From an uncultured Methanosarcinales archaeon (GTDB lineage: Archaea > Nanobdellota > Nanobdellia > Woesearchaeales > ARS49), in contig CAYUPS010000009.1 of NCBI GenBank assembly GCA_964445485.1, positions 11,579-43,489 on the forward strand: DNA of 31,911 nucleotides, written 5' to 3'. Below are positions 77 to 18,112 of the stretch, piece by piece. The notes below the pieces were generated by a model. It saw only the letters and a list, made by a program, of their open reading frames with translations. It ran no database searches and was not told the DNA's origin. Positions within the stretch are counted from its first letter, which is position 1. Every line of letters begins with the position of its first letter. The translations under genes and the position numbers were made by a program.

Positions 77-379
77 ATGCTCACGCCGCTCAAAGCGCAA
101 CCGACCATGCCAGGGAGGGGGATGACATTCATCGTCTTCTACTTTCCCTACGAGTACTTGCAGGAGCACTTCGGCACTTCCGCATGCCGGCTGCGTATCG
201 ACGGGAAGGATGCGCGCGGCTGGCACCTCCTGCATGATCTGCGCGAGGAATGCCTCATCTACGAGTTCGACGGCGAACCGGACCACATCTGCATCTGGAC
301 GTCCTCTCCCGCCATCGCGCAGCGCGCATTCGAGGATTTCGCTCTCCCCGAGAGCGCAGTCGTCTGGCGGCGGTCTTAG
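77..379 (+). CDS. hypothetical protein (100 aa)
   Basis: ORF in frame with the 14..379 track entry. Start was trimmed to ATG 77 because AGGAGG lies 7 nt upstream. Amino-acid composition is protein-like, not Arg/Ala/Pro junk. Confidence 0.55.
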   Translation: MLTPLKAQPTMPGRGMTFIVFYFPYEYLQEHFGTSACRLRIDGKDARGWHLLHDLREECLIYEFDGEPDHICIWTSSPAIAQRAFEDFALPESAVVWRRS

Positions 380-399
380 CGACACGGAAGGAGCATACC

Positions 400-930: not shown

Positions 931-960
931 CCGCAACCTCTTTTTGAAGGAGAGCCGACA

Positions 961-2238
961 ATGAATCGCAACATCATTCCCGCAGTGCTCGCCCTCGTGC
1001 TGCTCGCGCTCGCCGGCTGCGGCGGCAAACGCACCCGGACCGCCGCCCCGAAGCAGGAGAGCGTTTCGACCGAGCGCCCCGCTCCTGCCGTGACGCCGCG
1101 GAGACTGCCTGTCAAGGAGCAACCTGCTGCGCAACTGCCCAAGAAGGAACCCACGCCAACGCCTCCCGAGACAATCATCAAGACAGTGGGCGGGGTTGAG
1201 TATACCGCAGTGGTGAGGTCGAAGGGCCACGCGGCGGGCGAAGCGAAAGAGCCGCCTGCGGTCAATGTCATGGCTGACATCGCAGCCGCGAGCGGCAAGC
1301 GCTGGAGCGTTCACTACACGCGCACGGGCTCTGCCATGAAGATGAACGTGATGCAAGATGGTCACGTGATGGTCGTCAGGTGCGACGGGAATATGTGGTC
1401 TGTCAGCAAGGGGCGGTGCATGATCGTGAGCGACCAGGCAGGTATGCGCGTGACGCTCAACGGGCTGCCGACCGAGACGAAGGAGGATGCCGAGGCCGCG
1501 CAGACGATCCTCGCAGGGGCGCAGGATCTCATGAACGTCGTGTATTCCTTGCTTGATGGAAAGGATGGCGGCAGCGTGCGGGAGGAGTTCGAGACGTTCA
1601 AGGATCTCCTGCCGGCGAAAGAGATGCCAAAGACGCAGGAAGAGCCGATGCGGCCCGCAGAGGTCGTGCAGCTCGAGGAGACGCACCCGCCCGCTGAGCG
1701 CGCGGCGAACAATCCGCCGATCATCGAGGTGACAGAACCTGAAGAGACCGTGATGCCCCTGGAGGAAACGCGAGAGACAGCCGTCATCGAGACAGCGCCT
1801 GCGGCGGAACCGATGCGGGAAGAAGAAGCTCCTGCGGCAGTCAGTGATGTGCAGCCGCCAAAAGAAGTCTCTTCTCCCGCTGAACCCGCGCCGACTCCCT
1901 CGGTGCAAGAGACGAAGCAGGCGGATATGGCTCCCGCGGCAGAGACGACCGCTGCGAGCCAGCCCAGCACTCCCTCGGGGAGTGAGCAGGCGGTGCCTGC
2001 GGAAGAGGATGGGCGCTCGCCCTGGTCAGTGGCGCTCATCCTGCTCGGGATCGCAGGGGTGATGTGGGTCGGATACATCGCGTATCGCAGATGGCCCTAC
2101 CTGCAAGAGCACCTCGCTCCCGCGCGAGGCACGCAGATGGAGCAGCACGTCAAGCACATCAATGAGAAGATGCGGGAGCAGAAGAAGGCCATCGTCCTTC
2201 CGGCGCAGCAGGACAGCACGGGACACCCTGCTGATTAG
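961..2238 (+). CDS. putative lipoprotein with a Pro/Glu/Thr-rich low-complexity spacer and a C-terminal transmembrane helix
   Basis: GAAGGAGAG RBS before ATG 961. Signal peptide plus lipobox LALAGC/GG. Globular segment at aa 60-200, then a long E/P/T/A-rich region, then hydrophobic WSVALILLGIAGVMWVGYIAY followed by a basic tail. Confidence 0.75.
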   Translation: MNRNIIPAVLALVLLALAGCGGKRTRTAAPKQESVSTERPAPAVTPRRLPVKEQPAAQLPKKEPTPTPPETIIKTVGGVEYTAVVRSKGHAAGEAKEPPAVNVMADIAAASGKRWSVHYTRTGSAMKMNVMQDGHVMVVRCDGNMWSVSKGRCMIVSDQAGMRVTLNGLPTETKEDAEAAQTILAGAQDLMNVVYSLLDGKDGGSVREEFETFKDLLPAKEMPKTQEEPMRPAEVVQLEETHPPAERAANNPPIIEVTEPEETVMPLEETRETAVIETAPAAEPMREEEAPAAVSDVQPPKEVSSPAEPAPTPSVQETKQADMAPAAETTAASQPSTPSGSEQAVPAEEDGRSPWSVALILLGIAGVMWVGYIAYRRWPYLQEHLAPARGTQMEQHVKHINEKMREQKKAIVLPAQQDSTGHPAD

Positions 2239-2332
2239 ATGCGATAGTGGCGGTTGTGGGAGCGCATGCCGCTGCAGGACGCAGCCGCGCGCCCTCCCGC
2301 AATCGTTACTGCTTTTTGATCGAGGAGAGCGC

Positions 2333-2497
2333 ATGAAGAAACAGCTCAAGGATCTCATCACGCATGCCTGCCGCAAAGAGGGCAGCGTAGAGCGGCAGCA
2401 GCCACCGACCAACAACCCCCCGCCGAAATCTCGCGAGACCAAGAACGGGGAGGGGAAGAAGCACACCATCATCATAAGCCCGGAGACCTGGTGGTAG
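2333..2497 (+). CDS. small basic hypothetical protein (54 aa)
   Basis: ATG 2333 preceded by GAGGAGAG. Lys/Pro-rich hydrophilic peptide. Short, so uncertain. Confidence 0.35.
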   Translation: MKKQLKDLITHACRKEGSVERQQPPTNNPPPKSRETKNGEGKKHTIIISPETWW

Positions 2498-2528
2498 GAA
2501 CGCCACCGCCGGAGAAAGCGAGGCGGTC

Positions 2529-3008
2529 ATGCCGCATGACTCCTTCTTCAGGCGTGCGGCAGCGCTGGCGCGGCGCGCGTACTGGATACTCGCGGCCCTC
2601 ACCTGGCTGCTGTTCTTCTTCCACGCCTGCCGCAGCTGGTACCAAGTATGGACGTGGCCCGAACACATCCCGTACGGCTGGCTCCTGCATATCAGCAGCG
2701 GGATGTATTTCTCGCTCTGCATCGCCATCGCCATAGTGTCGGGAATGATGATGCGTGCGAGAAAGCATCAGAAACGAGAGCCCCTGCCGGCGCGGCGCAT
2801 CGACGTCCTGCCGGTCGCGCTCATCTCGGCGATCTTCTGCGCGCAGATGATGATGAGCAGCCTCTTCAACCTGCTGCACGGTCCAGCCACCGCCGAAACG
2901 TTCTACACGCACATGCTATCCCCCATGTACCTCTGGATCACAGGCTTCTTCGGCCTTGTCGGAGCGCTCGTGCTCACGGCTTCGCTGAAAATCATGCTCG
3001 AAGACTAA
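2529..3008 (+). CDS. integral membrane protein (about 4 TM), hypothetical
   Basis: ORF with several hydrophobic helices (ILAALTWLLFFF, FSLCIAIAIVSGMMM, VLPVALISAIFCAQMMM, LWITGFFGLVGALVLTA). Weak RBS AAAGCGAGG. Confidence 0.6.
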   Translation: MPHDSFFRRAAALARRAYWILAALTWLLFFFHACRSWYQVWTWPEHIPYGWLLHISSGMYFSLCIAIAIVSGMMMRARKHQKREPLPARRIDVLPVALISAIFCAQMMMSSLFNLLHGPATAETFYTHMLSPMYLWITGFFGLVGALVLTASLKIMLED

Positions 3009-3033
3009 GCAATACTCAAGGAGACCCTCCCGC

Positions 3034-3459
3034 ATGTTCCTGACCAACACTGAGAAGCTCACCGTCATCCTCTACACGCTCGGCGCTCCGCTGCGCATCA
3101 GGCAGAACGCGACCTTCACGGATATCATCGATGATGCCGCCCAGCGCTGGCCCGATTTCCTCGGCTGGTTCTGCCGCCCCATCGGCTCGCGCAACACGCC
3201 CCGGCTCGACAAGGCGGTGCATGAGCTGGTCATGGACGGTCTCGCCGAGTACGGAGAGGATGGCACGTTCATCGCGACCAGCCTGCTCTTCAAGAAGGAC
3301 GGCAAAGAAGTGTTCCAGACGCTGACGAAGAAGGAGCGGCACCGGGTAGTCGCCATAGGCCAGCGATTGCGCGCCGCGTTCAGCAAGGCACGGAGGAAAC
3401 GCAGGAGCATAAAAGAAGCGTGCGTCGGCAGGCCCCAGCGCAAGAGAGCCGGCGCGTAG
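3034..3459 (+). CDS. hypothetical cytoplasmic protein (141 aa) with a basic C-terminus
   Basis: AAGGAGA RBS before ATG 3034. Plausible composition. Confidence 0.6.
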   Translation: MFLTNTEKLTVILYTLGAPLRIRQNATFTDIIDDAAQRWPDFLGWFCRPIGSRNTPRLDKAVHELVMDGLAEYGEDGTFIATSLLFKKDGKEVFQTLTKKERHRVVAIGQRLRAAFSKARRKRRSIKEACVGRPQRKRAGA

Positions 3460-3481
3460 GACCTTCAGAAGGAGGAGATCC

Positions 3482-3817
3482 ATGCTTGTCCTGCTCGAAG
3501 TCGCTGCATGCGCAGGGGCCGCGACAGCAGTCATCGTCATCGCCCAGCGCCTCTGGAGCAAGAAACTGGCCGACCTGCCCACCATCGAAGGGACAGTGAA
3601 GCATATCATGCCGGCGGGCAGCCAGCAATACCTATTCGTCAAGGATGACGCGGACAATGCAGTCATCCTCCGCACGGACGCCGAGCACGAATTCAGCGAG
3701 GGCGACCGCATCAAAGCGCAGGTGCGCGAGCGGGACGGCGACGTCCGCCCTATCGTCTCCTTTGAGCGCACACGCCCGGCGCAGAACCCCCCCGCAGGAG
3801 GGCTGAGCAACGACTGA
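3482..3817 (+). CDS. membrane-anchored small protein; the C-terminal beta-rich domain may be an NfeD-like OB-fold (tentative)
   Basis: GAAGGAGGAG RBS. N-terminal TM (LVLLEVAACAGAATAVIVIA), then a segment of about 70 aa with alternating hydrophobic pattern. Confidence 0.6.
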   Translation: MLVLLEVAACAGAATAVIVIAQRLWSKKLADLPTIEGTVKHIMPAGSQQYLFVKDDADNAVILRTDAEHEFSEGDRIKAQVRERDGDVRPIVSFERTRPAQNPPAGGLSND

Positions 3818-3833
3818 ACACGAAAGGGAGACG

Positions 3834-4091
3834 ATGATGTCCTTGACGCTCGCGCTCATCCTCACGCCCGTGCTCCTCGCCTGCATCTACGGGGCGACAC
3901 GGGCAGGGGAGACAGCATGGTTCGCGGCGCTCTTCGGCACGCTGGTGCTCCTGATACCCGCCGCGTCTGTGTGCGGCTGCGTCGGGATCCATCACCCCGC
4001 GTGCGTCGTGTGCGTCTCAGCCATGCTGTCTCTCACCGCATGCCTCATCGGAGCCAAACGCGCGAAGACCGAGGCACGCAAGACCAAGTAG
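3834..4091 (+). CDS. small Cys-rich membrane protein (85 aa)
   Basis: GAAAGGGAGA RBS. Two hydrophobic helices. Cys cluster CGCVGIHHPACVVCV. Confidence 0.55.
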   Translation: MMSLTLALILTPVLLACIYGATRAGETAWFAALFGTLVLLIPAASVCGCVGIHHPACVVCVSAMLSLTACLIGAKRAKTEARKTK

Positions 4092-4147
4092 CACCCTGCG
4101 CCTCCGTGCGGAGACGCGGACAACCCGCTCAACAAGGAGAAGCAACC

Positions 4148-4876
4148 ATGCACCGCATGCTCATCGCGCTCACCCTCGTTACGGCCGCCGTGGCGTTCGC
4201 CGAAGAGAAGAAACCGGAACTCGCGCTCGTGTGCGCCTACGACCACGCCGAAACTGTCACGCCGCGCACCCCCGCCGTGCTCGAGAAGCTCAAGAACGGC
4301 AAGACCGTCGCGCTGTACACCGAGAACCAGCTCACCATGCTGCGCCTGGACGAGAAGGGCATCCTCCGCTCGCTCACCGCTGCATCGACGGACACCGAAG
4401 GCGTGACTCTGTTCGCCATGTACATCGGCAAGATGGGGGAGACTGCCGCGGACGACCGCCAGTACATCTTCGCCATGGGCGCCATGGTCTACGACCCCGC
4501 CAAAGACATGACAGGGCTCCACTTCCAGCAAGACCGAGCAGGCACGCACTCGCTCGCATCCCCTCCCGAAGGCTATAGCGCGGAACAGCTGGCGACCGCC
4601 TACACCGGCATCTTCCGCCAGCTCTTCGAAAGCATGCAGGTCAACGACGTGTGGAACGCCCTCCAGCTATCGATGGACAACGCCAAAGCGAAAGGAGACG
4701 CGCTCCGGAAGAAGCAAGAGCAGGAAGCGAAGGAATCCACCGAAGGCGCGCTCGAAGCGCTCAAGAGCGGCAAGGAGTTCATAGACGCGGAGCAGAAGCG
4801 CATCGAGGAGGAAGGCAAGCTCCTCGAGAAGATCTTCGAGGACATGTTCAAGGATCAGCCCGGCGAGGAAAACTAA
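4148..4876 (+). CDS. secreted protein with one copy of a novel 'C-x-YD ... GKTV-x-LYTEN' domain and a C-terminal coiled-coil-like E/K-rich region
   Basis: AAGGAGAAG RBS before ATG 4148 (start trimmed from track ORF 3917). Signal peptide MHRMLIALTLVTAAVAFA. Motif LVCAYDHAETVTP...NGKTVALYTENQLTMLRL is shared with the 11917..13188 product. Confidence 0.7.
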   Translation: MHRMLIALTLVTAAVAFAEEKKPELALVCAYDHAETVTPRTPAVLEKLKNGKTVALYTENQLTMLRLDEKGILRSLTAASTDTEGVTLFAMYIGKMGETAADDRQYIFAMGAMVYDPAKDMTGLHFQQDRAGTHSLASPPEGYSAEQLATAYTGIFRQLFESMQVNDVWNALQLSMDNAKAKGDALRKKQEQEAKESTEGALEALKSGKEFIDAEQKRIEEEGKLLEKIFEDMFKDQPGEEN

Positions 4877-4909: not shown

Positions 4910-4947
4910 AAGCGCGCCTCGTGCAGTCACGGCGAGGCGCGCTTTTT
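4910..4947 (+). terminator. rho-independent terminator
   Basis: Perfect 12-bp stem AAGCGCGCCTCG / CGAGGCGCGCTT, 11-nt loop, followed by TTTTT. Confidence 0.8.
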
Positions 4948-4965
4948 CCCAAGGAGACGTGCACC

Positions 4966-6462
4966 ATGAAAAAGGTAACCGGACGGCCCGACGAGAGGCT
5001 CGTCAACAAGATCAAACAGCAGTGGTATCAGTGGCCCGCCGCCCACTTCATCGGCAACGAGTGGGTGTCACCTTCAAACTTCATTAAGCTCATCCCCATC
5101 ATCAATCCAGCAACCGAAGAAAAAATCACCACGACCGTAGGCGGCCTGAAGGACGACATCGACCGCGCCGTCAGCGCTGCACGACATGCCTTCGAGCATG
5201 GCCAGTACCACGGCTGGAGCGGCAGGGACCGCGGCAACTTCCTCCGCAAACTCGCCGACCTGGTCGAAGAGCGCAGCGAAGAGCTCGCCATCCTCGAGTG
5301 CCTCAACAACGGCAAGCCCATCAACGAGCTGCGCGCCGTCGACCTGCCCATGACCATCAGCGTGCTCCGCTACTACGCAGGCATCGCCGAGAACATCCGC
5401 GGCGAGACCATCGACGTCCCCGGCCACCATGTGTACACGCGGCGCGAACCCATGGGCGTCGTCGGCAGCATCACCGCCTGGAACTTCCCGCTCCTGCTGC
5501 TCAGCTGGAAGTTCGGGCCCGCCATCGCCTGCGGCAACACCATGGTCCACAAGCCGCCCGAGCAGGCGCCCATGACGTCACTGCGCTTCGCAGAGCTGTG
5601 CCGTGAAGCAGGCCTGCCCGACGGCGTCTTCAATGTTGTCACCGGCGACCACGTTGCAGGATCGGCGCTCACGCACCACACGGGCGTCGACAAGGTCGGC
5701 TTCACCGGCCACTACAGCACCGGCCAGCTCGTCATGGAAGCCGCCGCCAAGAGCAATCTCAAGCGCGTCAGCCTGGAACTCGGCGGCAAGTCGCCGAACA
5801 TCATCCTCGACGATGCCGACATCGACGAAGCAGTGCAGGGCACCATCACCGGCATCTTCTTCAACCAGGGCCAGGTGTGCTGCGCCGGCTCGCGCCTGTT
5901 CCTGCCTAAGAAGATGAAGCAGAAATTCCTCACCAAACTCGCCAGCGCCGCCAACGCGCGCATCGTCGGCAACCCGCTCGACACCAACACCGAGCAAGGG
6001 GCGCAGATCAACCAAGAGCAGTTCGAGAAGATCCTCGGCTACATCGAGGCAGGCAAGAAGGAAGGCGCCAAGGCGCTCACCGGCGGCGAGCGCGCAGGGA
6101 ACCGCGGCTACTTCATCAAGCCCACCGTCTTCACCAACGTCGACGACAGCATGACCATCGCCCGCGAAGAGATCTTCGGACCGGTCGTCTGCGCCATGCC
6201 CTACGAGACGCTCGACGAAGTCGCCGCCCGCGCCAACGACACGCAGTACGGCCTCGGCGCAGCCATCTTCACCAAGGACATCCGCAAAGCCCACACCCTC
6301 GCCGCGAAGATCAAGGCGGGAACCGTGTGGATCAACTGCTACAACGCCTTCGACGCAACCGTCCCCTTCGGCGGGTACAAGATGAGCGGCTTTGGGCGAG
6401 AACTCGGCCGCAGCGCCATCGAACTGTACACGCAGGAGAAAGCAGTCTGGGTCAAGCTGTAA
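4966..6462 (+). CDS. NAD(P)-dependent aldehyde dehydrogenase family protein (498 aa)
   Basis: AAGGAGA RBS before ATG 4966. ALDH motifs ELGGKSP (catalytic Glu) and FFNQGQVCCAGSR (catalytic Cys), plus GSTxVG-like NAD-binding region. Full ALDH length. Confidence 0.9.
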   Translation: MKKVTGRPDERLVNKIKQQWYQWPAAHFIGNEWVSPSNFIKLIPIINPATEEKITTTVGGLKDDIDRAVSAARHAFEHGQYHGWSGRDRGNFLRKLADLVEERSEELAILECLNNGKPINELRAVDLPMTISVLRYYAGIAENIRGETIDVPGHHVYTRREPMGVVGSITAWNFPLLLLSWKFGPAIACGNTMVHKPPEQAPMTSLRFAELCREAGLPDGVFNVVTGDHVAGSALTHHTGVDKVGFTGHYSTGQLVMEAAAKSNLKRVSLELGGKSPNIILDDADIDEAVQGTITGIFFNQGQVCCAGSRLFLPKKMKQKFLTKLASAANARIVGNPLDTNTEQGAQINQEQFEKILGYIEAGKKEGAKALTGGERAGNRGYFIKPTVFTNVDDSMTIAREEIFGPVVCAMPYETLDEVAARANDTQYGLGAAIFTKDIRKAHTLAAKIKAGTVWINCYNAFDATVPFGGYKMSGFGRELGRSAIELYTQEKAVWVKL

Positions 6463-6547: not shown

Positions 6548-6883
6548 GTGCTCACATCCCTCCTGCTTCACGCGTTTGCCAGCCTGCTGGGAATCGCCAT
6601 CATGATCTTCGGGTTCTTCGTCATCATCGGCATCATCGGACTGCCCTCCTCGAACCGCAACCGCAGGCGCACCATCCAGACACTCGCGTGCTCCCTGATA
6701 ATCATCCAGGGGACCATCATCCTCGACATGGGCCTCCTCGGCCTGTTCGAGACGTTACGTCTGCCGCTCACTGCACTCGTCGCAGTGCTCCTGGCAGTTC
6801 TGTTCCTGGTGCTGCACGGCAGGTGGCTGATCAGCTCCAGAAACGCATACGACAGCCGCCTGCATTCCGACCGAAAGGACTGA
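6548..6883 (+). CDS. small integral membrane protein (about 3 TM), GTG start
   Basis: GTG 6548 preceded by TAGAAAGGAG. Hydrophobic helices throughout. Confidence 0.6.
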   Translation: MLTSLLLHAFASLLGIAIMIFGFFVIIGIIGLPSSNRNRRRTIQTLACSLIIIQGTIILDMGLLGLFETLRLPLTALVAVLLAVLFLVLHGRWLISSRNAYDSRLHSDRKD

Positions 6884-6887
6884 CCTT

Positions 6888-7160
6888 ATGGCGCAGCACA
6901 TCATCACAGTCCCCTGCAAGGGACGCGACGCCGCAGGACAAGAAGTCTTAGCAGAACCGGTTCTCGCGGAGGTCAGCGTGTCTCACCGCACAGGCAGCAG
7001 CATCATCTCCCTCGATGTGCGCTGCCCCCACAACACCGGCAGCCACGGCCAGCGCTGCAAGGCCTCGCATCCGGGCAAGGACAAAGTGGGCGACGGCGTC
7101 GCGTGCTGCTACGCCTGCGACCTGCCCTACGCGCTGGAAAATAAATCCTCCAAGAGGTAA
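6888..7160 (+). CDS. small Cys-rich protein (90 aa), possible metal-binding
   Basis: Seven Cys, including CPHNTGSHGQRC and CCYAC. Weak RBS. Starts 5 nt after the previous stop. Confidence 0.45.
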   Translation: MAQHIITVPCKGRDAAGQEVLAEPVLAEVSVSHRTGSSIISLDVRCPHNTGSHGQRCKASHPGKDKVGDGVACCYACDLPYALENKSSKR

Positions 7161-7231
7161 GCAGGCATAAGCCGTGAACGTCCGTGTTAGCCCGAGAAGC
7201 GGAGGGCGGCAAGCACTCCGGAGAGCGACCA

Positions 7232-7477
7232 ATGGCAATCACGAAGACTGGAATCCTTTCGGGAGACGCATGCCCGGAGGAGAACGCACATCACATGTCG
7301 GCACTCGAGAAGGCGCTTGACAGGAAAATCCTGCGGGAATACCGGGGCGAAGGATGCGTAATTACCGTCCCCTTCGATGAGACTTGCAATCCTTCGACCA
7401 TCGGGCTCCTCGCACACATCTACCGACGGAACGGCTGGAGAGTCCATCTGGACACCGACTACCTCCAGATCTCTTGA
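7232..7477 (+). CDS. hypothetical small protein (81 aa)
   Basis: Start trimmed to ATG 7232, preceded by GGAGAGCG. Protein-like composition. Confidence 0.5.
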   Translation: MAITKTGILSGDACPEENAHHMSALEKALDRKILREYRGEGCVITVPFDETCNPSTIGLLAHIYRRNGWRVHLDTDYLQIS

Positions 7478-7497
7478 GAATCAGAAAGGAAGGTTTC

Positions 7498-7725
7498 ATG
7501 GATGCCGTGACGCTCCTGCTCTATGCCGGCGCTGCGCTCTCATTCAGCATGGCCCTATTTTGCATGCTGCGTGTTGCGATCGCGGCGTCTCGCGGCATGG
7601 GCGCGCTCCGCACACTCATAGCGGTGCTCGCGATCGGCGCGATCATCTTCGTCGGCGTCATCAGCTTTGAATGCGCGCACGCACGGCGCAAGACCTTGCT
7701 GTTCCAGCAGAATGGCTCTCCTTAA
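7498..7725 (+). CDS. small membrane protein (75 aa, 2 TM)
   Basis: AGAAAGGAAGG RBS before ATG 7498. Two hydrophobic helices. Confidence 0.55.
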   Translation: MDAVTLLLYAGAALSFSMALFCMLRVAIAASRGMGALRTLIAVLAIGAIIFVGVISFECAHARRKTLLFQQNGSP

Positions 7726-7761
7726 CGCAGTAAAGAGGCTCTACTCGAAAGAAGGTGACAA

Positions 7762-7878
7762 GTGAAAACTATACTGCTTATTCTGGCAGGAGCCATGCTG
7801 CTGTTCCTGGTGCTCGCAGGAATAGTGCTTCTCCTGTTCATTGTCGCTGTAGTTCAGAAAATATGGGAGCTACTCTGA
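7762..7878 (+). CDS. 38-aa hydrophobic micro-protein (single TM) just upstream of the ABC exporter (tentative)
   Basis: Not in the ORF track (too short). GTG 7762 after GAAGGTGA, with an alternative ATG at 7794. Encodes VKTILLILAGAMLLFLVLAGIVLLLFIVAVVQKIWELL. The region is locally AT-richer. Stop lies 8 nt before the ABC gene start. Confidence 0.3.
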   Translation: MKTILLILAGAMLLFLVLAGIVLLLFIVAVVQKIWELL

Positions 7879-7885
7879 GGAAAAC

Positions 7886-10726
7886 GTGACGCAACCCAGT
7901 CGCATCAACCAACGGCGGCAACGCCCGCTGCTTTCTGCGAGGTGTCCCATGAGCATGACAGTGACGACCGGACACGATCGTGCGCTGGTGGAAGCGGCGG
8001 TCGCCAAGGCGCAGGCCGGCGAGGCATTGCGCCGTCTGGGCATCCACACCATCGAGGCCTTCGCGCACAGCGACAGGACGCGCGAGGGCGATTTCGGCAG
8101 CACGGCGCTCATCATCACGCCCTCGGAGCTCATCACGATCAGCATCTCCGGTACACGTGTCGAGACGCGGCTGCCGCGCAAGAGTGTCATCGAGGTCAAG
8201 GAAGAGGAATTGCCCGGCGGAGGCAGCCTCGAAGCGAGGATGTGCGGCGGCGAGAAGGAATACATCATCCGCTACAGCAACAGCCGGCGCAAACTGTTTG
8301 GCAGCATCGCAGCGAGGCTCACCGAACAGGCGAAGTGGTCCGCGACGGGCGCCGGCGTCGAGCCGCCAAATCACTTCGATGATATCCTCGAGCAGGAGCG
8401 CAGGCGGCGCTGCCAGACATGCGACAGGCCCATCGAGAAAGGGGTGCAGCACTGCCCCGTCTGCCTTGATCGCGGCCAGACGTTCAAACGCCTGCTCTCG
8501 CTCGCGAAACCCTACCGCATGCGCCTCCTCACAGTCACGGCGCTCATGCTTCTCCAGACCGCCATCCTCCTCCTGCCGCCGTACCTGATCAAGCTGCTCG
8601 TCGACAGCGTGCTCACGCCGCCCGCGCAGCATCCGGAGTGGCGCTGGCCGCTGCTTGGCGGCGTGGCCGCGTGCTTCATCATCGCCATGGGTGTGCGGCT
8701 CGTGCGCGGCCGCCTGGCAGTGAGCATGGCTCACACCATGACCAAGGACCTGCGTGATACTGTGTTCGGCCACATCAGCGTCATGGACATGGCCTTCTTC
8801 GACCAGCAGAAGGTGGGGAAGCTCATCGCCCGCATCCACAGCGATCCGAGCAGGGTCAACAGCTTCCTCTCGAGCGGTCTGCAGATGGCGCTCGCCAACC
8901 TCCTCATGCTCATCGGTGTGGGGACCATGCTGCTGCTCATGCATCCCCTCATCGGGGGCCTGGCAGTCATGGCTTCCATCGCCGCAGTGACGATCACTAT
9001 GCTGGTGTGGAAGCGCATCGCCATCCGGTACCGCAGGGTGTGGGCAGCCGACTCGCACCAGGTGAGCTACCTGAGCGACAGCATGAGCGGCGTGCGCGTC
9101 ACCAAGACGTTCGGCAGGACCGACGAGGAGAACGCGCGGTTCGGCATGCTCAGCGGCGAGCTCGAGCGGCGCTTCATCGAAGCGGACGTGCTGTGGCTCA
9201 CCGTGCTCCCCGGCCTCATCCTGCTCTTCGAGCTCACCACGTTCCTCGTGTGGTCCTTCGGCTCGGGACAGGTCATGGCGGGCACGATGACCATCGGCAC
9301 GCTCATGGCGTTCATCGCGTACATCAGCATGTTCATCGGTCCGCTGAGCGCGCTGACCGAGATCAGCAACATGCTCATCCAGAGCCTCACCGCGGCAGAG
9401 CGCATCTTCGAGGTGCTCGACCGGCAGCCGCAGATCATGGAAGCCAAGAATCCCACGCGCATCCAGCGCATGCAGGGCCGCATCGAGCTGCGCAACGTCA
9501 CGTTCCGCTATCCCGGCGGCAAGCCCGCGCTCAACGACGTCTCTCTCACCATCCTGCCCGGCGAGACTGTCGGCATCGTCGGAAAATCGGGCGCCGGCAA
9601 GAGCACGCTGGTGGACATCATCACGCGCCTGCGCGACCCGGACAAAGGCATGGTGCTCATCGACGGCATCGATATCAGGGAGGTCTCCATTGAGGACATC
9701 CACCGGCAGATCGGGGTGGTGCAGCAGGAGCCGTTCCTCTTCTCAGGCACCATCGCGCAGAATATCGCCTACTCGCGCCCCGGCGCCACGCGCGAGGAGA
9801 TCATGGCAGCCGCAGCGGCCGCCAAAGGCGAGAAGTTCATCATGCAGAAACCGCAGCAATACCACACGCTCGTCGGAGAGCGAGGACAGGGACTCTCAGG
9901 AGGGGAACGGCAGCGCATCGCCATCGCGCGGGCCATCCTCCAGGACCCCGCCATCCTCATCCTCGATGAAGCCACATCGTCGCTCGACATGGAGACCGAG
10001 CGCGAGATACAGGAAGGCTTCGCCTACCTGACCAAGAACCGCACGACCATCGCCATCGCGCACAGGCTCAGCACGCTCGCCGGCGCCGACCGCCTGATAG
10101 TGATGGACGAAGGGAGCATCGTCGAAGAAGGCACGCACGAAGAGCTGCTGCGCAAGAGAGGCGTGTACGCGGCGCTCGTCGCGGCGCAGGAGCGGGCGCC
10201 CAACCGCGACGTGCCGGCCAAAGAGCTCCTCACGCAGCTCATCCTCCTCGATCCCGCGCACGTCCTGCTCGAGAGGGCATCGGCGCACGCACCCGTCCGC
10301 CTCACCTACCGCGCCGAGGTGCACGAGAAGGTCAAGCTCGTCCGCGCGCTCCCCGACACGGCCAAAGACGAGTGCATCAAGGTGCTCGACCCCGACGATA
10401 AGACCATCGGGCTCATCCACCGCGTAGCGAGCCTCATCCCCGGGCAGCAGGAGCTCGTTAGGCAGGAGCTCGAGCGGCGGCACCTCATCCCCACCATCCT
10501 GCGCATCCACTCCCTCAAGGACGAGCGGTATCATTACAGGATGGACGCGGACACGACCCGAGGAAGGGCAGTCTTCCTCATCGCCAACCCGCCCAACGAC
10601 CACATCAAGCGCATCGACATCGCCAAAGAGGCGTACCGCATCAACGACCTCGCAGGAGACCGCTACACACTCGACGTGAGCGCGCTGGACGCGAAAAGCC
10701 AGGCGCTGCTCGATGAGATCAAGTGA
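7886..10726 (+). CDS. fused ABC exporter (type-I exporter TMD + NBD) with an N-terminal PH-like domain of about 180 aa, a zinc ribbon and a C-terminal extension of about 190 aa
   Basis: GTG 7886 (GAGGAA upstream) or ATG 7949 (GAGGTG upstream); the start is ambiguous. Zinc ribbon [20 protein letters not shown]. Six TM helices. Walker [13 protein letters not shown] signature LSGGERQR, Walker [11 protein letters not shown]-loop IAHRL. About 190 aa follow the NBD. Confidence 0.9.
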
Positions 10727-10743: not shown

Positions 10744-11076
10744 ATGGCTGATCCGTTTGTCGTCACATCCAAGTGCATCGGCACCCGGGACACTGCCTGC
10801 ATGAAGGTGTGCCCCGTGAACTGCTTCTATGATGTGCCGCTCAAGGACCTCGGCCTGCAGGAGCCGGCCGATGCAACGCCCGAGCTGAAGAAGATGCTCA
10901 TCATCAACCCGGATGAATGCATCGGCTGCAGCGTGTGCGAACCCGAGTGCCCGGTGAACGCCATCTTCGACCTCAATGCGGTTCCGGACGAAGAGACGGC
11001 GTTCATCGACATCAACAAGAACTGGTTCGACGGCAAGAGCGCGGAGGAATTGGACAAGCACCGCATCACGCCGTGA
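10744..11076 (+). CDS. fdxA: 7Fe ferredoxin ([3Fe-4S][4Fe-4S], Azotobacter FdI/FdxA type)
   Basis: GGAAGGAGGG RBS before ATG 10744. Aligns with A. vinelandii FdI: FVVTSKC-x7-C-x3-CPVNCFY ... [22 protein letters not shown]. Confidence 0.85.
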
Positions 11077-11145: not shown

Positions 11146-11850
11146 ATGACATTTAGCATCTACACCATGCAAGAAATCGACGGCATCGTCGAAGTCGGCC
11201 CGAAGCCTGAGACGAGCAACGCCGCAAGAATCGCGCTCATCGATCTCGCGGAACAGCTAAGGAAGTCTGGCTGGATTGAGCAGCACACCCTCGCGGACGG
11301 GCGGGAATTCAAGTTCCCCTTCGAGAAGCCCAACCCTGCAGCGCTACGGGACTTCTTCGGCGGCGAGAAGGACCTCAATATCGTCCAAGCGGAGATCGAC
11401 GAGCTTGAGCGGCAGTGGCGCGCGGAACTCAAGGCTGCCAAGGATATCCTCCAGGACGAAATCGCGAACGCAAAAACGATTGAGGACTTCGATAAGATTC
11501 TGGAGAAGTACCACTACGACAGCCCCGCCAACAAGCAGACATCGGACCGGCACTCCTACAACTGCGATCGAAACCGCTTGCACCGCGAACTCACCCACGA
11601 ACGAGCGGAGGCGGTCAAGATCCTTGAGAGCAATCATTCCAACTGGTGCCGCAGCCACGTCGCCCACCTCTACAACTGCTGTGGTGATGCGATGTTCTAC
11701 GGCGCCGGCTGCTGGATGATGCGCGCCATCCCCGCCAGCGCCGAAGCGAAGGACCTCATCGAGCGATTCTTCACGAGCGCACGCCTGCCGTACCAGACCA
11801 TCGATCTCGCCGCGCTGCGTAAGGACGTGCAGAAGAAGATGCAGCAGTAA
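11146..11850 (+). CDS. hypothetical cytoplasmic protein with a Cys/His cluster (234 aa)
   Basis: AAGGAGAG RBS. Cys/His-rich segment HSYNCDRNRLH...NWCRSHVAHLYNCCGDAMFYGAGCWM. Confidence 0.65.
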   Translation: MTFSIYTMQEIDGIVEVGPKPETSNAARIALIDLAEQLRKSGWIEQHTLADGREFKFPFEKPNPAALRDFFGGEKDLNIVQAEIDELERQWRAELKAAKDILQDEIANAKTIEDFDKILEKYHYDSPANKQTSDRHSYNCDRNRLHRELTHERAEAVKILESNHSNWCRSHVAHLYNCCGDAMFYGAGCWMMRAIPASAEAKDLIERFFTSARLPYQTIDLAALRKDVQKKMQQ

Positions 11851-11916
11851 CCACACACTCCGGATGCGTGCCGCGCGGCACCAACGGACAACGAATACAC
11901 CAGACAAGGAGTCCCC

Positions 11917-13188
11917 ATGAAATACGCACTCGCCCTGCTGCTCGCACTCAACGTCACCATCCTCGCCGCCGAAGCGCCGCCCGTCACGTACATCTGCATG
12001 TACGACCTGAAGGCGACGCCGGACGGCACGGACCTCGACATGGGCTCGTTCAACGCCAAGGTCAAGGAAGGCGGCATCGTCGTCCTCTACACCGAGAACA
12101 GCGCCCTCATCACGCACCAGAAGGACGGCATCGTCTACCAGATGGCCATCGGTCCGGAAGAGGACTGGTTCGACTCCTTCGTGATCAGCTGCAAGTCCGG
12201 CGATCCCGATAGCCAGACGGAGCTGTGCCTCATCAGCGGAAGCGTGCACGGTTCGAAATTCGACGGACCGGATACCGTGCTCGCGCTGAAGGTCCATAAT
12301 ATCGAGATCGGCAGCTACAAGATGTATACCACCAGGAACTTCGCGGATATTCTCCCGGCAGGATACAACCGCGGGCAATTCATGGCAGCGACTGAGAAAT
12401 TGGTCAATCGCGTGTCGAAGATGCTGCGATCGAACGACGTACTCCTCGTCATCGAGCAGGCGAAGGATGCCATCCTCGCCAAGCGGAAAGCATACGTGAA
12501 GCTCGCCATGGAAGTCCAGGAGAAGCACAACGCGAGCCTCGCAGCGCATGAAGAATCGGCGCTGGGAATCCTCAGGAATGCTGCCGTGGCGGGACAGCTC
12601 GGCAATGACGCAGGACGGGTCAACATCTGCGAGTACGACCTGCTCCCCACCGCCGACGGAGAGCTCGTCGCGAGCGATACATACCTCCTTAATCGGCAAG
12701 AAGTCGCGGCGCCGCTCAAGGAAGGGAAGACAGTCGTGACCTACACGGAGAGCAGCATGATCGTCCGGCGCCAAGTCGGCAAGAGAGAGGTCCAAGCCGG
12801 CAGCTTCTCCAACGGGCGGGGAGTCGTGCGCGTCTATGACATCGGCGACAAGGGAGCCACGCTGCTCTTGTCGCTCGAGGGAGAGCTGCAGGTGGGAACC
12901 ACGCTCGATGGAGAGGAGATCGCCGCCATCGACGTGGATTACTGCTGGGTCGCGCCGTGGTCCGGTCTCGACAACCCTCCCAAAGGGATGGGCGCCGAAC
13001 AGGTGAAGCGCAACGCGGCGGCATTCTGCGACAGGGTATTGCGCTCGATGGACTTCTCGGCGAGAGTCCTCGAGTTCCGACGGACACTGCAGAACGACGG
13101 CAAGGAGAAGCTCAAGGGCGCCCAAGAGCGCATGAAGACCCGGCAAGAGAGCATCGACAAGAAAGCGCTGGAGCTGCTCGGGAAGTAA
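11917..13188 (+). CDS. secreted protein with two copies of the 'C-x-YD ... LYTE' domain plus coiled-coil-like regions
   Basis: AAGGAG RBS. Signal peptide MKYALALLLALNVTILAA. Copy 1: YICMYDLKATPDG...EGGIVVLYTENSALI. Copy 2: VNICEYDLLPTADG...EGKTVVTYTESSMIV. Paralogous to the 4148..4876 product. Confidence 0.7.
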   Translation: MKYALALLLALNVTILAAEAPPVTYICMYDLKATPDGTDLDMGSFNAKVKEGGIVVLYTENSALITHQKDGIVYQMAIGPEEDWFDSFVISCKSGDPDSQTELCLISGSVHGSKFDGPDTVLALKVHNIEIGSYKMYTTRNFADILPAGYNRGQFMAATEKLVNRVSKMLRSNDVLLVIEQAKDAILAKRKAYVKLAMEVQEKHNASLAAHEESALGILRNAAVAGQLGNDAGRVNICEYDLLPTADGELVASDTYLLNRQEVAAPLKEGKTVVTYTESSMIVRRQVGKREVQAGSFSNGRGVVRVYDIGDKGATLLLSLEGELQVGTTLDGEEIAAIDVDYCWVAPWSGLDNPPKGMGAEQVKRNAAAFCDRVLRSMDFSARVLEFRRTLQNDGKEKLKGAQERMKTRQESIDKKALELLGK

Positions 13189-13235
13189 ACAACTTGCGCT
13201 CAGGCAGCACCGCGCACCCTAGAAAGGAATGTTCC

Positions 13236-13784
13236 ATGAACGAACCGCAAAAGGCCCCGCAAGACGAAACCCCTGAGAGCGAACCCCTCCAGCCGCAACA
13301 CGCAGGATTTTGGAATTTCTTCTGGACTTGTCTGTTCTTCATCGGCAGCCTCTTCTTCATGGCGCGGCTCTACATCAACTACGAGTTTCTCACCGGCAAT
13401 ATCGCCATGCCCGAGAATGCACCTTTGGAGCTGGCGCAGATCATCACCCACCCCATCCTCAGCGTTGCAGGAAACGCAGGGTTCGTTCTGCTGCTGTCCC
13501 TCCTCATGTACACCCGAGCCCGACTGCTATGGCGAGGTGACGCAAACCCCGCAACCAGAGGTGATTTGATCCTCATGCAGCTCATGGGCATCGGCGCAAT
13601 CAGCGGCAGCGTCTGCGTATCCCTTCTCATCATCGAATCCCTGCGCATGACCGGCGGTCCGTTTTTGGGGGTGCTGTACCTCATCATCACAACTCTCCTC
13701 CTGTGGCGCGGATGCGTCAGCATGACTGCCACGCTCCCACTGATCAAAAACGCACCTCACGAGGATGCCCCTCCCACGGAATAA
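13236..13784 (+). CDS. integral membrane protein (about 4 TM), hypothetical
   Basis: TAGAAAGGAA RBS before ATG 13236 (start trimmed from track ORF 12957). Four hydrophobic helices. Confidence 0.65.
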   Translation: MNEPQKAPQDETPESEPLQPQHAGFWNFFWTCLFFIGSLFFMARLYINYEFLTGNIAMPENAPLELAQIITHPILSVAGNAGFVLLLSLLMYTRARLLWRGDANPATRGDLILMQLMGIGAISGSVCVSLLIIESLRMTGGPFLGVLYLIITTLLLWRGCVSMTATLPLIKNAPHEDAPPTE

Positions 13785-13859
13785 CACGCAGTCACACAAG
13801 AGCGCCGCCGCGGCCTGCGCATGACAGCGCGGCGGCACTCACTCACCACAGGAGGCCCC

Positions 13860-14588
13860 ATGGGCAAGGAATTGCAGAAGGAAGTCGAGCTGCGCTACAC
13901 CGCGCTGCTCGAGCGTCTCGCCGCCGACGCCCTCAAAGGCATGGGCAAGGAAACGATGCGCTGGGCCAAGGACGGTATCGCCTCCGCCCTCGGCAAAGTC
14001 CTGAGCGCGCTCGGTATCACCGGGCTCTACAAGAACTTCGCACTGCTCAGGAGCATCAACACCATCGTCTTCGGCACTGCCGACAACCCGCAGGAGAACC
14101 CGCTCGGCGCCATCGGCATCCCCTTCACCTCACCAAAGGAGCTCGAGCGCAGGATGCGTGAGCTCGAGAAGGTCGTGCGCGAGCGCCTCAGCAAGTCCGA
14201 CACAGCAGTGCCGCCGAATGTCGAAGAAGGTCTCGTCGCGGCGCGCGGCAGGCTCATCGCCCTCAACCGCCGCCACGGCAACGTCGTCAAGAAGCTCACG
14301 ACCATCGCCGATGCGGCCGACATCGACGCCGTCAACGACGAGAGCATGATGGCTGCCATGCGCAAGGAGTACAAGAGCGCCGAGAACCACTACGCCTCCC
14401 TGCGCAATATCACCGGCGCCTTCCGAGACTACACCCTCGCCGTCATCTACCTGCTCGAGTGCGGCGACAAGAGCACCCGCTTGCTTGGCACCGCGGCCCA
14501 CGGCGCGCTGGACGTCGCATGGAAAGGCATCGATCCAGCGGCCGACGGCGTCGCCAAACGCATCAGCAAACGCGTCTTCGGCGAGTAA
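13860..14588 (+). CDS. hypothetical cytoplasmic protein (242 aa)
   Basis: CAGGAGG RBS before ATG 13860. Helical composition. Confidence 0.65.
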   Translation: MGKELQKEVELRYTALLERLAADALKGMGKETMRWAKDGIASALGKVLSALGITGLYKNFALLRSINTIVFGTADNPQENPLGAIGIPFTSPKELERRMRELEKVVRERLSKSDTAVPPNVEEGLVAARGRLIALNRRHGNVVKKLTTIADAADIDAVNDESMMAAMRKEYKSAENHYASLRNITGAFRDYTLAVIYLLECGDKSTRLLGTAAHGALDVAWKGIDPAADGVAKRISKRVFGE

Positions 14589-14617
14589 TCCGTTCCACCA
14601 TCTGTGAAAGGACACCT

Positions 14618-14974
14618 ATGAGCGCCGTTGAAAATGAAGTCCGACCACAAGGTGAAGTTGAACCTGACAACGCAGTATTCACCGAAGCAAACATCCTCTG
14701 GATGAGCGTCAAAGAATGGGCGGAAGCGACTGGGAAGGACCCGCGACAGTACGCGCTGGAAGGCATTATCAGCGCAAAGCATGAAGACATCAGATCCTGC
14801 ATCAGCAGCCTTGTGAAAAAGATAATAAACACAACCATTGACTGTCCGGAGGTAATCCTGCATCTCACAGTCATCAACTATCCCTCGGGGAGTCAATATG
14901 AACACTCCTGTGTCTCTCTCGCAGGCGTCGCCCTCATCCCCAAGAAGAAGGAGGATGCATTCAAGAACGACTAA
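14618..14974 (+). CDS. hypothetical protein (118 aa)
   Basis: GAAAGGA RBS before ATG 14618. The 3' part is locally AT-richer. Confidence 0.55.
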   Translation: MSAVENEVRPQGEVEPDNAVFTEANILWMSVKEWAEATGKDPRQYALEGIISAKHEDIRSCISSLVKKIINTTIDCPEVILHLTVINYPSGSQYEHSCVSLAGVALIPKKKEDAFKND

Positions 14975-14994
14975 CCCCGCGACAAGGAGGCGCC

Positions 14995-15621
14995 ATGAAA
15001 CGGAGCACCGTCGTGAAACTCGTGATCGCCATCAGCGTGGCGCTCGCCACCGTGGCCATCATCGACCTGCGGAGGAAGACGCCAGCGGAACCCGCGCTGC
15101 CGGCGCCCCCGCCGGAACAGACCGCACCGCAAGAGCCCCCTCGGAAGGAGACGCCGAAGCCAATCGACGACTTCGCGCCCTTCGAGACGCTTTTCAAGAA
15201 AGACTACTGGCCATTCCTGACCAAGAAGATCGTGCAGCTGCCCATGACGTACACCCGCGACAACTTGGGCGAAGAGGCCGAGCACGGCGGCATGGAAATG
15301 GACATCCGCGACGACCACATGCAGCGACAGTGGACAGTGGAATACAAATGCCACCTGTTCATATCAACCGGCCCGCTCGAAGTCCTCGAGACGCTCACCA
15401 TCAAGACTGAAGGAAAGACCCTCTCCATACTCCGAGTCGGCGACATGAACAGCGCGGACCTCATCACCGTCAACACACAACAGCTGGAGCTGATGCAGGA
15501 TCAGAACAAACCCCCCACCATCAAACGGAACGGCGGAACCGTATTCACCGCCGAAGAAGCGTCAAAACGCCTCACACAGTGCCGCGAACTGCTCGAGCGC
15601 GTCGCGACAAGCACGAAGTGA
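14995..15621 (+). CDS. membrane-anchored protein (N-terminal TM, Pro-rich linker, globular C-domain); possible partner of the downstream SPFH protein
   Basis: AAGGAGG RBS. TM VVKLVIAISVALATVAIIDL, then a P-rich linker. Sits immediately 5' of the SPFH gene, the usual position of NfeD-like partners. Confidence 0.65.
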   Translation: MKRSTVVKLVIAISVALATVAIIDLRRKTPAEPALPAPPPEQTAPQEPPRKETPKPIDDFAPFETLFKKDYWPFLTKKIVQLPMTYTRDNLGEEAEHGGMEMDIRDDHMQRQWTVEYKCHLFISTGPLEVLETLTIKTEGKTLSILRVGDMNSADLITVNTQQLELMQDQNKPPTIKRNGGTVFTAEEASKRLTQCRELLERVATSTK

Positions 15622-15702: not shown

Positions 15703-16632
15703 ATGGAACTCACCACCATCCTGATGATCGCCGGCAGCGCAGTGGCGTTCATCTTCTTCCTCCGCGGCTTCCGTCAGGTCGATCAGACCGAGCGCGGCCT
15801 CATCGAGCGCTGGGGCAAATTCGTCGGCTTCGCCGAGCCCGGCCTGCACTGGATCCTGCCAGTCATGTACCGCATGCGGCGCGTGGATATCACTGAGAAG
15901 ATGGTCGCCTCCGGCACGCAGGACATCATCACCAAGGACAAGCTGAACGCCAGCGTCGACCTCGTCGTGTACTTCCAGGTGCAGAGCGATGAGGAATCCA
16001 TCAAGAAGAGCCAGTACAGCGTCTCCGACTATGAGACGCAGATCGTCAGCCTGGCCCGCACCACGGCGCGCAACATCATCGGCAAGCTGAGCTTCACCGA
16101 GACGAACTGCGAGCGCGAGAAGCTCAACACGCAGCTCGAGGAACATCTCAAGAAGGAAGTGCAGGCGTGGGGCCTGCGCATCGTGCGCGTCGAACTGCAG
16201 GAGATCGACCCGCCCGACATCGTGCAGAACGCGATGAATGAAGTTGTGACTAATGAGCAGAAGAAGCTCGCGGCGACCGACTTCGCGACCGCCAAGGAGA
16301 CCGAAGCGGACGGCGAGCGCAGAGCCGCTGTCAAGAAGGCGCAGGGCGAGGCCGAAGCGGTGCAGGTGCGCGCCAAGGCTGATGCTGAGGCCGTGACGCT
16401 CAAGGCCGAAGCGCATGCGAAGGCAATCGAGCTGGTCAACACCGCCGCCGAGAAGTACTTCAAGGGGAACGCGCAGACGCTCAAGCGCCTCGAATCCATG
16501 GTGGAAGCCACCAAGGCCAACACGAAGATCATCTTCACGAGTGACAATCGCACGCTCGAGACGCTGCTCGCCGCCGCGGCGGGAATCAAGGAAAGCACGC
16601 CGCAGGAGCCCGCCGCCAAACCGGCGACATAG
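15703..16632 (+). CDS. SPFH/band-7 (stomatin/HflKC-like) membrane protein
   Basis: GAAGGAGG RBS. N-terminal TM. SPFH core RGLIERWGKFVGFAEPGLHWILPVMYRMRRVDI ..., followed by an Ala/Glu/Lys-rich coiled-coil tail. Confidence 0.9.
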   Translation: MELTTILMIAGSAVAFIFFLRGFRQVDQTERGLIERWGKFVGFAEPGLHWILPVMYRMRRVDITEKMVASGTQDIITKDKLNASVDLVVYFQVQSDEESIKKSQYSVSDYETQIVSLARTTARNIIGKLSFTETNCEREKLNTQLEEHLKKEVQAWGLRIVRVELQEIDPPDIVQNAMNEVVTNEQKKLAATDFATAKETEADGERRAAVKKAQGEAEAVQVRAKADAEAVTLKAEAHAKAIELVNTAAEKYFKGNAQTLKRLESMVEATKANTKIIFTSDNRTLETLLAAAAGIKESTPQEPAAKPAT

Positions 16633-17087: not shown

Positions 17088-17159
17088 GCGGCGTAAGGAC
17101 GCGGCAGCCCATCCTGTAGAATGGGCGGCGAGAAACACTCATTCATCGCGAGGTGCATT

Positions 17160-18020
17160 ATGCGGGCATTCTGCCTCATCGCGGCATTGCTGGCGGCGAA
17201 CATCGTCGCTGCCGAAGACGAAGCGCTCAACGAAGACCTGCCGCAGGTCACGACGATCCGGCGCTTCATGCAGGACGGCCGGCAGCTGATGGAGCTCACG
17301 CTGCGCCAGGACGGCAAGGACGTGAGCATCTTCATCGACCTGGCCAAGACGCCCGAGGCCCAGCTGCTCCAGCCGGGCGACCGCATCACGGGAGAGTACA
17401 AGAAGGAGAACCGGACGCTCTGGATGACCGCGACGCACATCATCGGCGCGAACGGCCTGCCTATCACGATGGTCACGGAAGACCGCGCGCGGCGGATCAG
17501 GGCCATCGACGCGAGCAAGAACCCCATCGTCGTGACGCTCGATGACGGCACGGTCTACAAGATCGACGGCCTGCTGCATCCCTGGTACGTGCGGCTCAAG
17601 AAGGGGCAGGGCGTGTGCTTCGACTACGTGCAGCGGAGCGAGGACCGCTGGGCGCACGCCGCGACCATCCGGCTCTTCGCGCCGGGCGTCCCTGACACGC
17701 GTCTTGAGACGTGGTCCTTCGGCGTCGAGGACGAAGTCGAGACAGTCGTGTGGGAGAACCAGCACGTCTGCCAGGTAACGACCCGCGGCAAGCGGCGGTT
17801 CTGGATCGACGTGCGGGTCTATCCGGGCTGCCGGCACTTCGTGAGGGGATTCCGCCTGCCGTTCGGCGCCCTTATCTACCAGAACAGGCACTGGCAGCCG
17901 CAGGCATGGTGGGTCAAGCACCATCACCGCCACAGGCACCACATGCGCGATCATCACCGCGGCAAGGGCGATGGCAAGAAGCACCGCGGCGGCAAGCACA
18001 AGGGAGGCAAGAAGAAATAA
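17160..18020 (+). CDS. secreted protein with a C-terminal His/Lys/Gly-rich tail
   Basis: GAGGTG RBS before ATG 17160. Signal peptide MRAFCLIAALLAANIVAA. C-terminus HHHRHRHHMRDHHRGKGDGKKHRGGKHKGGKKK. Confidence 0.65.
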   Translation: MRAFCLIAALLAANIVAAEDEALNEDLPQVTTIRRFMQDGRQLMELTLRQDGKDVSIFIDLAKTPEAQLLQPGDRITGEYKKENRTLWMTATHIIGANGLPITMVTEDRARRIRAIDASKNPIVVTLDDGTVYKIDGLLHPWYVRLKKGQGVCFDYVQRSEDRWAHAATIRLFAPGVPDTRLETWSFGVEDEVETVVWENQHVCQVTTRGKRRFWIDVRVYPGCRHFVRGFRLPFGALIYQNRHWQPQAWWVKHHHRHRHHMRDHHRGKGDGKKHRGGKHKGGKKK

Positions 18021-18112
18021 GCACTGAGCGCCGCGGCTCCGCGTCAGCCACTCATCGTGAGATGGCGGCGGGGCCGCGGCAAAGCATGACACCTCATCTG
18101 AGGTAGACTCGC

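Follow-up and report, generated by a model that had tools for sequence, protein, structure and literature searches.

What is an ATP-binding cassette (ABC) exporter with additional domains at both of its ends, and is its architecture as rare as it seems? The question is raised by a gene at positions 7886 to 10726 of a 31,911-nucleotide stretch of contig CAYUPS010000009.1 (assembly GCA_964445485.1, from an uncultured Methanosarcinales archaeon). This whole stretch is called the window below, and the product of the gene is called the query. Judging from sequence comparisons, the query very probably belongs, as a divergent member with a fusion event of its own, to a known, uncharacterized family that pairs an ABC exporter with a DUF1854 domain. 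Its parts are given here, with residue numbers following the 946-aa form that starts at GTG 7886 unless the 925-aa form is named.

7886..10726, + strand: the whole open reading frame (ORF), 946 aa from GTG, which places a PH-like domain, a zinc ribbon, an ABC exporter and DUF1854 on a single chain.
7970..8347, + strand: cytoplasmic N-terminal domain, in which a PH-like beta-sandwich of seven strands follows a leading helix and is capped by a long helix.
8411..8464, + strand: predicted four-cysteine zinc ribbon (C176-x2-C179-x10-C190-x2-C193), about 17 residues before the first transmembrane (TM) helix.
8516..9367, + strand: transmembrane domain (TMD) of a type IV (ABCB/MsbA-like) exporter with six TM helices, from Pfam ABC_membrane, hydropathy and PDB alignments.
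9482..10189, + strand: nucleotide-binding domain (NBD) with a complete set of catalytic motifs, from Pfam ABC_tran and the motifs themselves.
10190..10231, + strand: linker of about 14 residues between the NBD and DUF1854, from alignments A1 and A4.
10232..10723, + strand: fused DUF1854 domain (PF08909), built of two beta-rich lobes with a helix after each.
10724-10726, + strand: stop codon (TGA).

The initial annotation expected a structured extension of about 190 residues beyond the NBD. Approximately 178 residues are found there, and a Pfam search gives them a name, DUF1854 (PF08909; aa 813-944, profile positions 1-129 of 130, 83.6 bits versus a cut-off of 26.8). In a 42-sequence alignment (A4), the query keeps all invariant columns of this family (P, TD.G, D..G.RY and L), and it is missing the terminal YW/YY motif of some DUF1854 clades. 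The domain is modeled with a predicted local distance difference test score (pLDDT) of 91.6. No solved structure resembles the model significantly in a Foldseek search (E >=0.065), and a profile search of PDB sequences with DUF1854 likewise reveals no significant relative (E >=0.98).

The half-transporter core described at the outset (six TM helices, Walker A, signature, Walker B and H-loop) is also recovered by Pfam, by hydropathy and by the positions of its motifs. ABC_membrane (PF00664) matches aa 216-487 with 98.4 bits, and the hydropathic segments between aa 211 and 494 are consistent with six TM helices. ABC_tran (PF00005) matches aa 549-698 with 120.9 bits, and the NBD carries Walker A at 566 (GKSGAGKS), the Q-loop at 611, the LSGGERQ signature at 670, Walker B (ILILDE, 690-695) with its catalytic glutamate, and the H-loop (AHR) at 725. 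The chain thus has what is expected of a type IV ABC exporter, which is a six-helix TMD followed by one NBD per chain with every catalytic motif present. No second half-transporter gene adjoins the ORF in the window. From what is known of the wider family, the protein should form a homodimer and carry out ATP-driven export. Regarding the start site, a public database copy of the same protein (P0001) is 100% identical over 925 aa and begins with the ATG at 7949. Because a GAGGTG Shine-Dalgarno (SD)-like site lies 6 nt upstream of that ATG and the database entry has 925 aa, the ATG at 7949 is a likelier start than the GTG at 7886.

Ahead of this core, the proposed PH-like N-terminal domain is supported by the predicted fold, which is modeled with confidence and has both the seven-stranded beta-sandwich and the C-terminal capping helix of a PH-like domain. 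No named PH, GRAM or bPH family in Pfam matches aa 1-165 at E<=1. The zinc ribbon was also called correctly, as was its location immediately before the first TM helix, and only the spacing between its two CxxC pairs needs correction, from x11 to x10. Its four cysteines are nearly invariant in a 43-sequence alignment of relatives (A5). Furthermore, weak profile matches to the zinc ribbons of Nop10, eIF2-gamma, L32 and L37 are seen, as is a weak match to Pfam Zn_ribbon_15 (E=0.041). The two conserved CxxC knuckles are a predicted zinc ribbon on this sequence evidence. We also considered whether the N- and C-terminal domains are duplicates of each other and rejected this idea, given that hhalign assigns a probability of 0.4% to homology between the PH-like domain and DUF1854.

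How widespread is this N-terminal module? The query and six relatives supplied their N-terminal 185-205 residues for a profile, which was searched against 1.84 billion cluster representatives and matched 1,134 proteins at E<=1e-3, including 602 at E<=1e-10. In the 150 matches listed, the matched stretch lies at or near the N-terminus. Among these top 150, the CxxC...CxxC motif is present in 118 of the 123 family representatives whose N-terminal region is complete, and 29 proteins are near full length (>=700 aa). By profile similarity, the combined PH-like and zinc-ribbon module is the mark of a family of at least 1,134 clusters at 50% identity.

The C-terminal domain was followed in a similar manner. 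A word-indexed search with the C-terminal 173 aa as a single sequence found nothing, and homologs were retrieved with a profile of four fused C-termini. This profile recovered 92 DUF1854 proteins, all shorter than 300 aa and most with 155-200 aa. Two of them (P0125 and P0126, 274-287 aa, labeled 'DUF1854, partial') cluster with the fused proteins P0026 and P0028 in a neighbor-joining (NJ) tree, and probably represent fused exporters truncated to their C-terminal ends on short contigs. As a result, metagenome counts of 'standalone' DUF1854 proteins are likely to overestimate the unfused form.

The genomic setting of the unfused form is quite uniform. Standalone DUF1854 genes directly follow genes for ABC exporters of 711-771 aa (L001, L003, L005, L006, L007 and L008), with spacings that range from a 4-nt overlap, which is often seen, to a 22-nt gap. 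At L005 (5640-8004, on a 1-Mb contig), two gene calls, of 601 aa and 178 aa, take the place of a single exporter gene ahead of DUF1854. This split is probably an assembly frameshift, which means that gene joins and splits in the ABC/DUF1854 cassette can be artifactual. When GTDB species representatives were scanned with a DUF1854 clade profile, and the loci analyzed by ORF calling, BLAST and a hidden Markov model of the N-domain, 40 loci were obtained, mostly from Planctomycetota (Phycisphaerae, Planctomycetaceae and Tepidisphaerales) and including two labeled Anaerolineales. DUF1854 adjoins or is fused to an ABC exporter in 39 of these loci; L017 was left out of this pairing because its contig ends just upstream of DUF1854. 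Wherever the N-terminus of the exporter was recovered, it carries the N-domain.

Fusion of the two genes is a recurring theme. Seven of the 40 GTDB loci (L042-L048) encode a fused ABC-DUF1854 protein, 949-1007 aa long at the loci that yielded a complete ORF, and a C-terminal DUF1854 is present in nine of the 29 near-full-length N-domain representatives. That DUF1854 is sometimes fused to an ABC exporter has already been reported (Price et al., bioRxiv 10.1101/072470), and this was the only paper to mention DUF1854 in the library that we searched. The suggestion that domains at both termini make for an uncommon half-transporter therefore does not withstand a survey of its distribution, which includes 1,134 N-domain clusters and fusions at the frequencies given above, and both termini prove to be ordinary accessory domains of the family. 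The fusion probably arose more than once, as far as sequence relationships allow this to be judged. Because the fusion recurs and the unfused pairs are tightly coupled in translation, the Rosetta-stone evidence shows DUF1854 to be a putative cytoplasmic subunit of the pump with 1:1 stoichiometry.

Where, then, does the query belong within this family? Its closest relatives are 35-39% identical. The fused proteins of Planctomycetota, Chloroflexota and metagenomes with which it was compared (P0026-P0028, P0055 and L042-L048; 925-1013 aa) have an identical domain order and are only 34-36% identical to it. The ABC part of the query is 39% identical to that of the unfused P0024 and P0031 versus 34-35% for the fused P0026-28, and its DUF1854 groups with that of the unfused P0183 (L001), apart from the other fused clades, in an NJ tree that carries no support values. 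Since its ABC and DUF1854 parts are each nearer to unfused relatives, these comparisons suggest that the fusion arose separately in the lineage of the query. A scan of GTDB genomes with the single query protein found no relative, and a scan of JGI metagenomes returned only distant generic ABC transporters with 29-37% identity over the core. Together with the many ORFs in the window that match no family, these two scans point to a poorly sampled lineage.

A fusion seen in one assembly could be an assembly or sequencing artifact, for example an indel by which an otherwise normal two-gene cassette loses the stop codon between its genes. The short spacing between the genes in unfused relatives (-4 to +22 nt) means that one error could join them, the split gene at L005 shows that errors of this type occur in these assemblies, and the exact protein has only one database copy. 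Regardless, we judge this explanation to be very improbable. The join is in frame, it contains a plausible linker of 14 residues, and alignment places this segment against the N-terminal end of standalone DUF1854 proteins, such that the query retains their full N-terminal segment. Furthermore, the same fusion is found independently in many other assemblies. Compared with the two-gene form, the stop codon and the intergenic gap would have been lost at 10190..10231, thereby tethering DUF1854 to the C-terminus of the NBD.

The genes around the ABC/DUF1854 cassette could also offer clues to its function, and three ORFs close to it in the window need to be introduced for this purpose.

7498-7725, + strand: small hydrophobic ORF of 75 aa with about two TM segments and an SD-like site; no family match.
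7763-7879, + strand: small hydrophobic ORF of 38 aa with one TM segment, a GTG start and an SD-like site; no family match.
10744-11076, + strand: FdxA-like ferredoxin of the 7Fe type (Cx7Cx3CP ... CxxCxxCxxxCP), with its start 17 nt downstream of the ABC stop codon.

The ferredoxin and the upstream micro-protein had been put forward as possible partners of the exporter. When flanking ORFs from 45 related loci were clustered all against all, conservation was limited to the ABC/DUF1854 pair and the shadow ORFs that go with it, and no neighboring gene family is shared by more than four loci, which leaves both proposed partners without support. One further ORF group, present at nine loci, is read in a different frame entirely within the ABC genes. 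Neither of the two small upstream ORFs has a conserved counterpart at these loci. The ferredoxin was rejected as a partner on several counts: it has its own strong SD sequence (GGAAGGAGG) and an ATG at 10744, it starts after the ABC stop codon, and it is not conserved beside the cassette elsewhere. The ABC gene and the ferredoxin gene are probably transcribed together. Against the NCBIfam models, the ferredoxin does not reach the cut-offs and its match is broken in two, suggesting that about 20 residues are inserted between its cluster motifs. The ABC/DUF1854 cassette is self-contained, and the adjoining genes, including those for the ferredoxin and the micro-proteins, appear not to be part of the exporter system.

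Characterized ABC systems provide some guidance as to what the accessory domains might do. Solved exporters (Sav1866, TM287/288, MsbA and ABCB1) align to the query over its core only (aa ~165-755 of the 925-aa form), with E values down to 1e-103 for the half-transporters among them, and none of these chains covers either the PH-like and zinc-ribbon region or DUF1854. Exporters of the HlyB-type type I secretion systems (T1SS) and of the PCAT type use an N-terminal C39 or C39-like accessory domain to bind their cargo. Like the query, they have a type IV core that follows a cytoplasmic N-terminal accessory domain. In contrast, their N-domain is papain-like, whereas that of the query is PH-like and has no peptidase match. 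Moreover, unlike the situation with HlyB-type T1SS, no genes for membrane-fusion or outer-membrane partners are conserved near query-type cassettes at the 45 loci. A second precedent comes from MalK, MetN and ModC, which are importer ATPases with C-terminal regulatory domains on their NBDs. These proteins resemble the query in that their NBD is followed C-terminally by a beta-rich domain, but they are importer subunits, and they exhibit no sequence similarity or significant structural similarity to DUF1854.

With a little better than an even chance of being correct, the query can be read as the single-chain form of a widespread bacterial two-gene exporter/DUF1854 cassette whose accessory domains handle cargo. 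In this scheme, the MsbA/ABCB-type half-transporter with its PH-like domain and zinc ribbon would dimerize as a homodimer, and its intact ATPase site would drive export. DUF1854 would work at the cytoplasmic face, one copy for each copy of the pump. The PH-like domain and DUF1854 might then recruit a substrate made in the cytoplasm and present it to the inward-open TMD, in a manner analogous to that of the C39-like domain of HlyB-type exporters. The cargo-handling role itself is a tentative proposal by analogy that falls somewhat short of an even chance.

Several points weigh against this interpretation. What is said here of dimerization, of the direction of transport and of the roles of the accessory domains is taken from knowledge of the family. 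Having a PH-like fold does not single out cargo recognition, since the ligands of such folds are of many types. For DUF1854, there is no solved structural relative from which an activity could be read. The NJ tree of DUF1854, as noted above, has no support values. Finally, the view is limited to 32 kb, and a cphA gene (for cyanophycin synthetase) or a cargo gene may lie elsewhere in the genome.

Among the alternatives to cargo handling, regulatory gating, the idea put forward in the initial annotation, survives best; we consider it rather unlikely, and only slightly less likely than the cargo-handling role itself. In this case, the PH-like domain, DUF1854 or both would sense a cytoplasmic ligand or partner and switch the ATPase without touching the cargo. 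It is consistent with gating that every fused form has DUF1854 attached directly to the C-terminal end of its NBD, where importers have their regulatory domains, and that the conserved charged residues of DUF1854 (TD.G and D..G.RY) could form a ligand site. An entry that contains MalK (2r6g) is also present among the non-significant Foldseek matches of DUF1854. However, no sequence similarity or significant structural similarity links DUF1854 to TOBE, ACT-like or other known regulatory domains of NBDs, and the 45 loci offer no conserved neighbor gene to serve as the partner. The cofitness results of Price et al. (bioRxiv 10.1101/072470) that are described below suit an obligatory subunit equally well.

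The next alternative, that the query is a true cyanophycin-associated exporter of a poly-amino-acid made by CphA/CphA' synthetases encoded elsewhere in the genome, is improbable in our estimation, despite the labels carried by the named families that score best against the query. NCBIfam NF052233 ('cyanophycin metabolism-associated ABC transporter', CphA_assoc_ABC) is the best named match and spans aa 56-778 (profile positions 33-753 of 766). Because this alignment begins at aa 56, the N-terminal domain belongs to the model of that family. Similarly, NF052234 ('cyanophycin metabolism-associated DUF1854 family protein', CphA_assoc_prot) matches the C-terminus. In Acidovorax and Cupriavidus, DUF1854 is reported to be cofit with a neighboring ABC exporter and with two cyanophycin-synthetase-like genes (cphA/cphA'), and DUF1854 is proposed to be a subunit of an amino-acid-polymer exporter (Price et al., bioRxiv 10.1101/072470). 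In one beta-proteobacterial clade, the presumed substrate is a polymer made by CphA/CphA'. Among our own loci, one cassette (L007) with a 155-aa DUF1854 is flanked by two cyanophycin synthetase genes. Like the query, the NF052233/NF052234 module of Acidovorax and Cupriavidus combines a PH-like N-domain, an MsbA-like half-transporter and DUF1854.

The query differs in being fused, and its scores fall far below the curated cut-offs of both equivalog models (564.7 versus 880 bits for NF052233 and 65.1 versus 150 bits for NF052234). A cphA gene was sought among the ORFs of the window and rejected, in that no CphA homolog is present in the 7.9 kb upstream or the 21 kb downstream of the gene. Such a homolog is likewise found within 8 kb at none of the 40 GTDB loci, and within 8-9 kb at none of the 44 related loci outside the cphA-linked L007. 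The L007 exporter (6869-9004) lacks the CxxC...CxxC zinc ribbon that is present in the query and gives a weak match to the N-domain profile (29 bits), compared with 170-220 bits for the exporters of relatives without cphA linkage, and its DUF1854 falls in a different NJ clade from that of the query. Because this cphA-linked exporter lacks the zinc ribbon, the ribbon separates two sub-families. Most family members have no cyanophycin synthetase or other conserved gene nearby, and for this reason transfer of the 'cyanophycin-associated' label to the query or to most of its relatives is not justified. The cargo of the query is probably not related to cyanophycin.

The weakest explanation, a PCAT/NHLP-type peptide or bacteriocin exporter whose cargo is one of the small upstream ORFs (7498-7725 or 7763-7879), draws on the position of these two same-strand ORFs and their SD-like sites directly upstream and on the presence of NHLM and bacteriocin ABC families further down the ranking of NCBIfam matches to the core, and it can hardly be credited given that the N-terminal region, which the initial annotation had allowed might simply be a PCAT-type peptidase, has no Peptidase_C39 match in Pfam and a PH-like rather than papain-like predicted fold, that the small ORFs resemble TM helices and have no double-glycine leader, and that no small ORF or other neighbor is conserved at the 45 loci.

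The remainder of the window adds the following features.

4921-6462, + strand: aldehyde dehydrogenase.
15703-16632, + strand: SPFH/Band-7 protein.
19341-21395, + strand: second SPFH/Band-7 protein, of unusual length (684 aa), whose SPFH domain lies in the C-terminal half.
24227-24739, + strand: dCTP deaminase.
26468-29380, - strand: Lhr-type large helicase.
29879-31135, + strand: DEAD-box helicase.
31143-31227, - strand: tRNA-Ser(TGA).

The housekeeping genes that frame the region are those of a chromosomal context and not of an obvious mobile element. The two SPFH/Band-7 genes are less than 6 kb apart. Long runs of ORFs on one strand (90-425 aa) that have no Pfam or NCBIfam match occupy positions 250-4876, 11146-15621, 17121-18995 and 21469-23912, in sequence with a GC content of 59-65%. 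This high GC content yields many long antisense shadow ORFs, such as those at 7838-9703 (-) and 19284-22178 (-).

For the window itself, these findings matter little, since the terminal domains of the query are typical of its family and are not an oddity of this gene. A suitable annotation for the gene is a PH-like/zinc-ribbon ABC exporter with a fused DUF1854, and its reading as an unusual, doubly regulated half-transporter is dropped. At the level of the family, what is added is that an N-domain lacking a Pfam model is predicted to be PH-like in its fold and that a conserved zinc ribbon comes after it. The family is large and its experimental study consists of one fitness study, and it is therefore a reasonable target for structural and genetic work, to which the copy in the window adds nothing special. 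It is also conceivable, if doubtful, that the PH-like/zinc-ribbon exporters with DUF1854 that are not linked to cphA form a new class that recruits macromolecular cytoplasmic cargo independently of cyanophycin synthetase. If this were true, then the new exporter class would include at least 1,134 clusters at 50% identity, would be common in Planctomycetota, and would count the query as a divergent, independently fused member. Neither of its two accessory domains would have a counterpart among the solved ABC transporters, nor would the family of either domain have a structurally characterized member.

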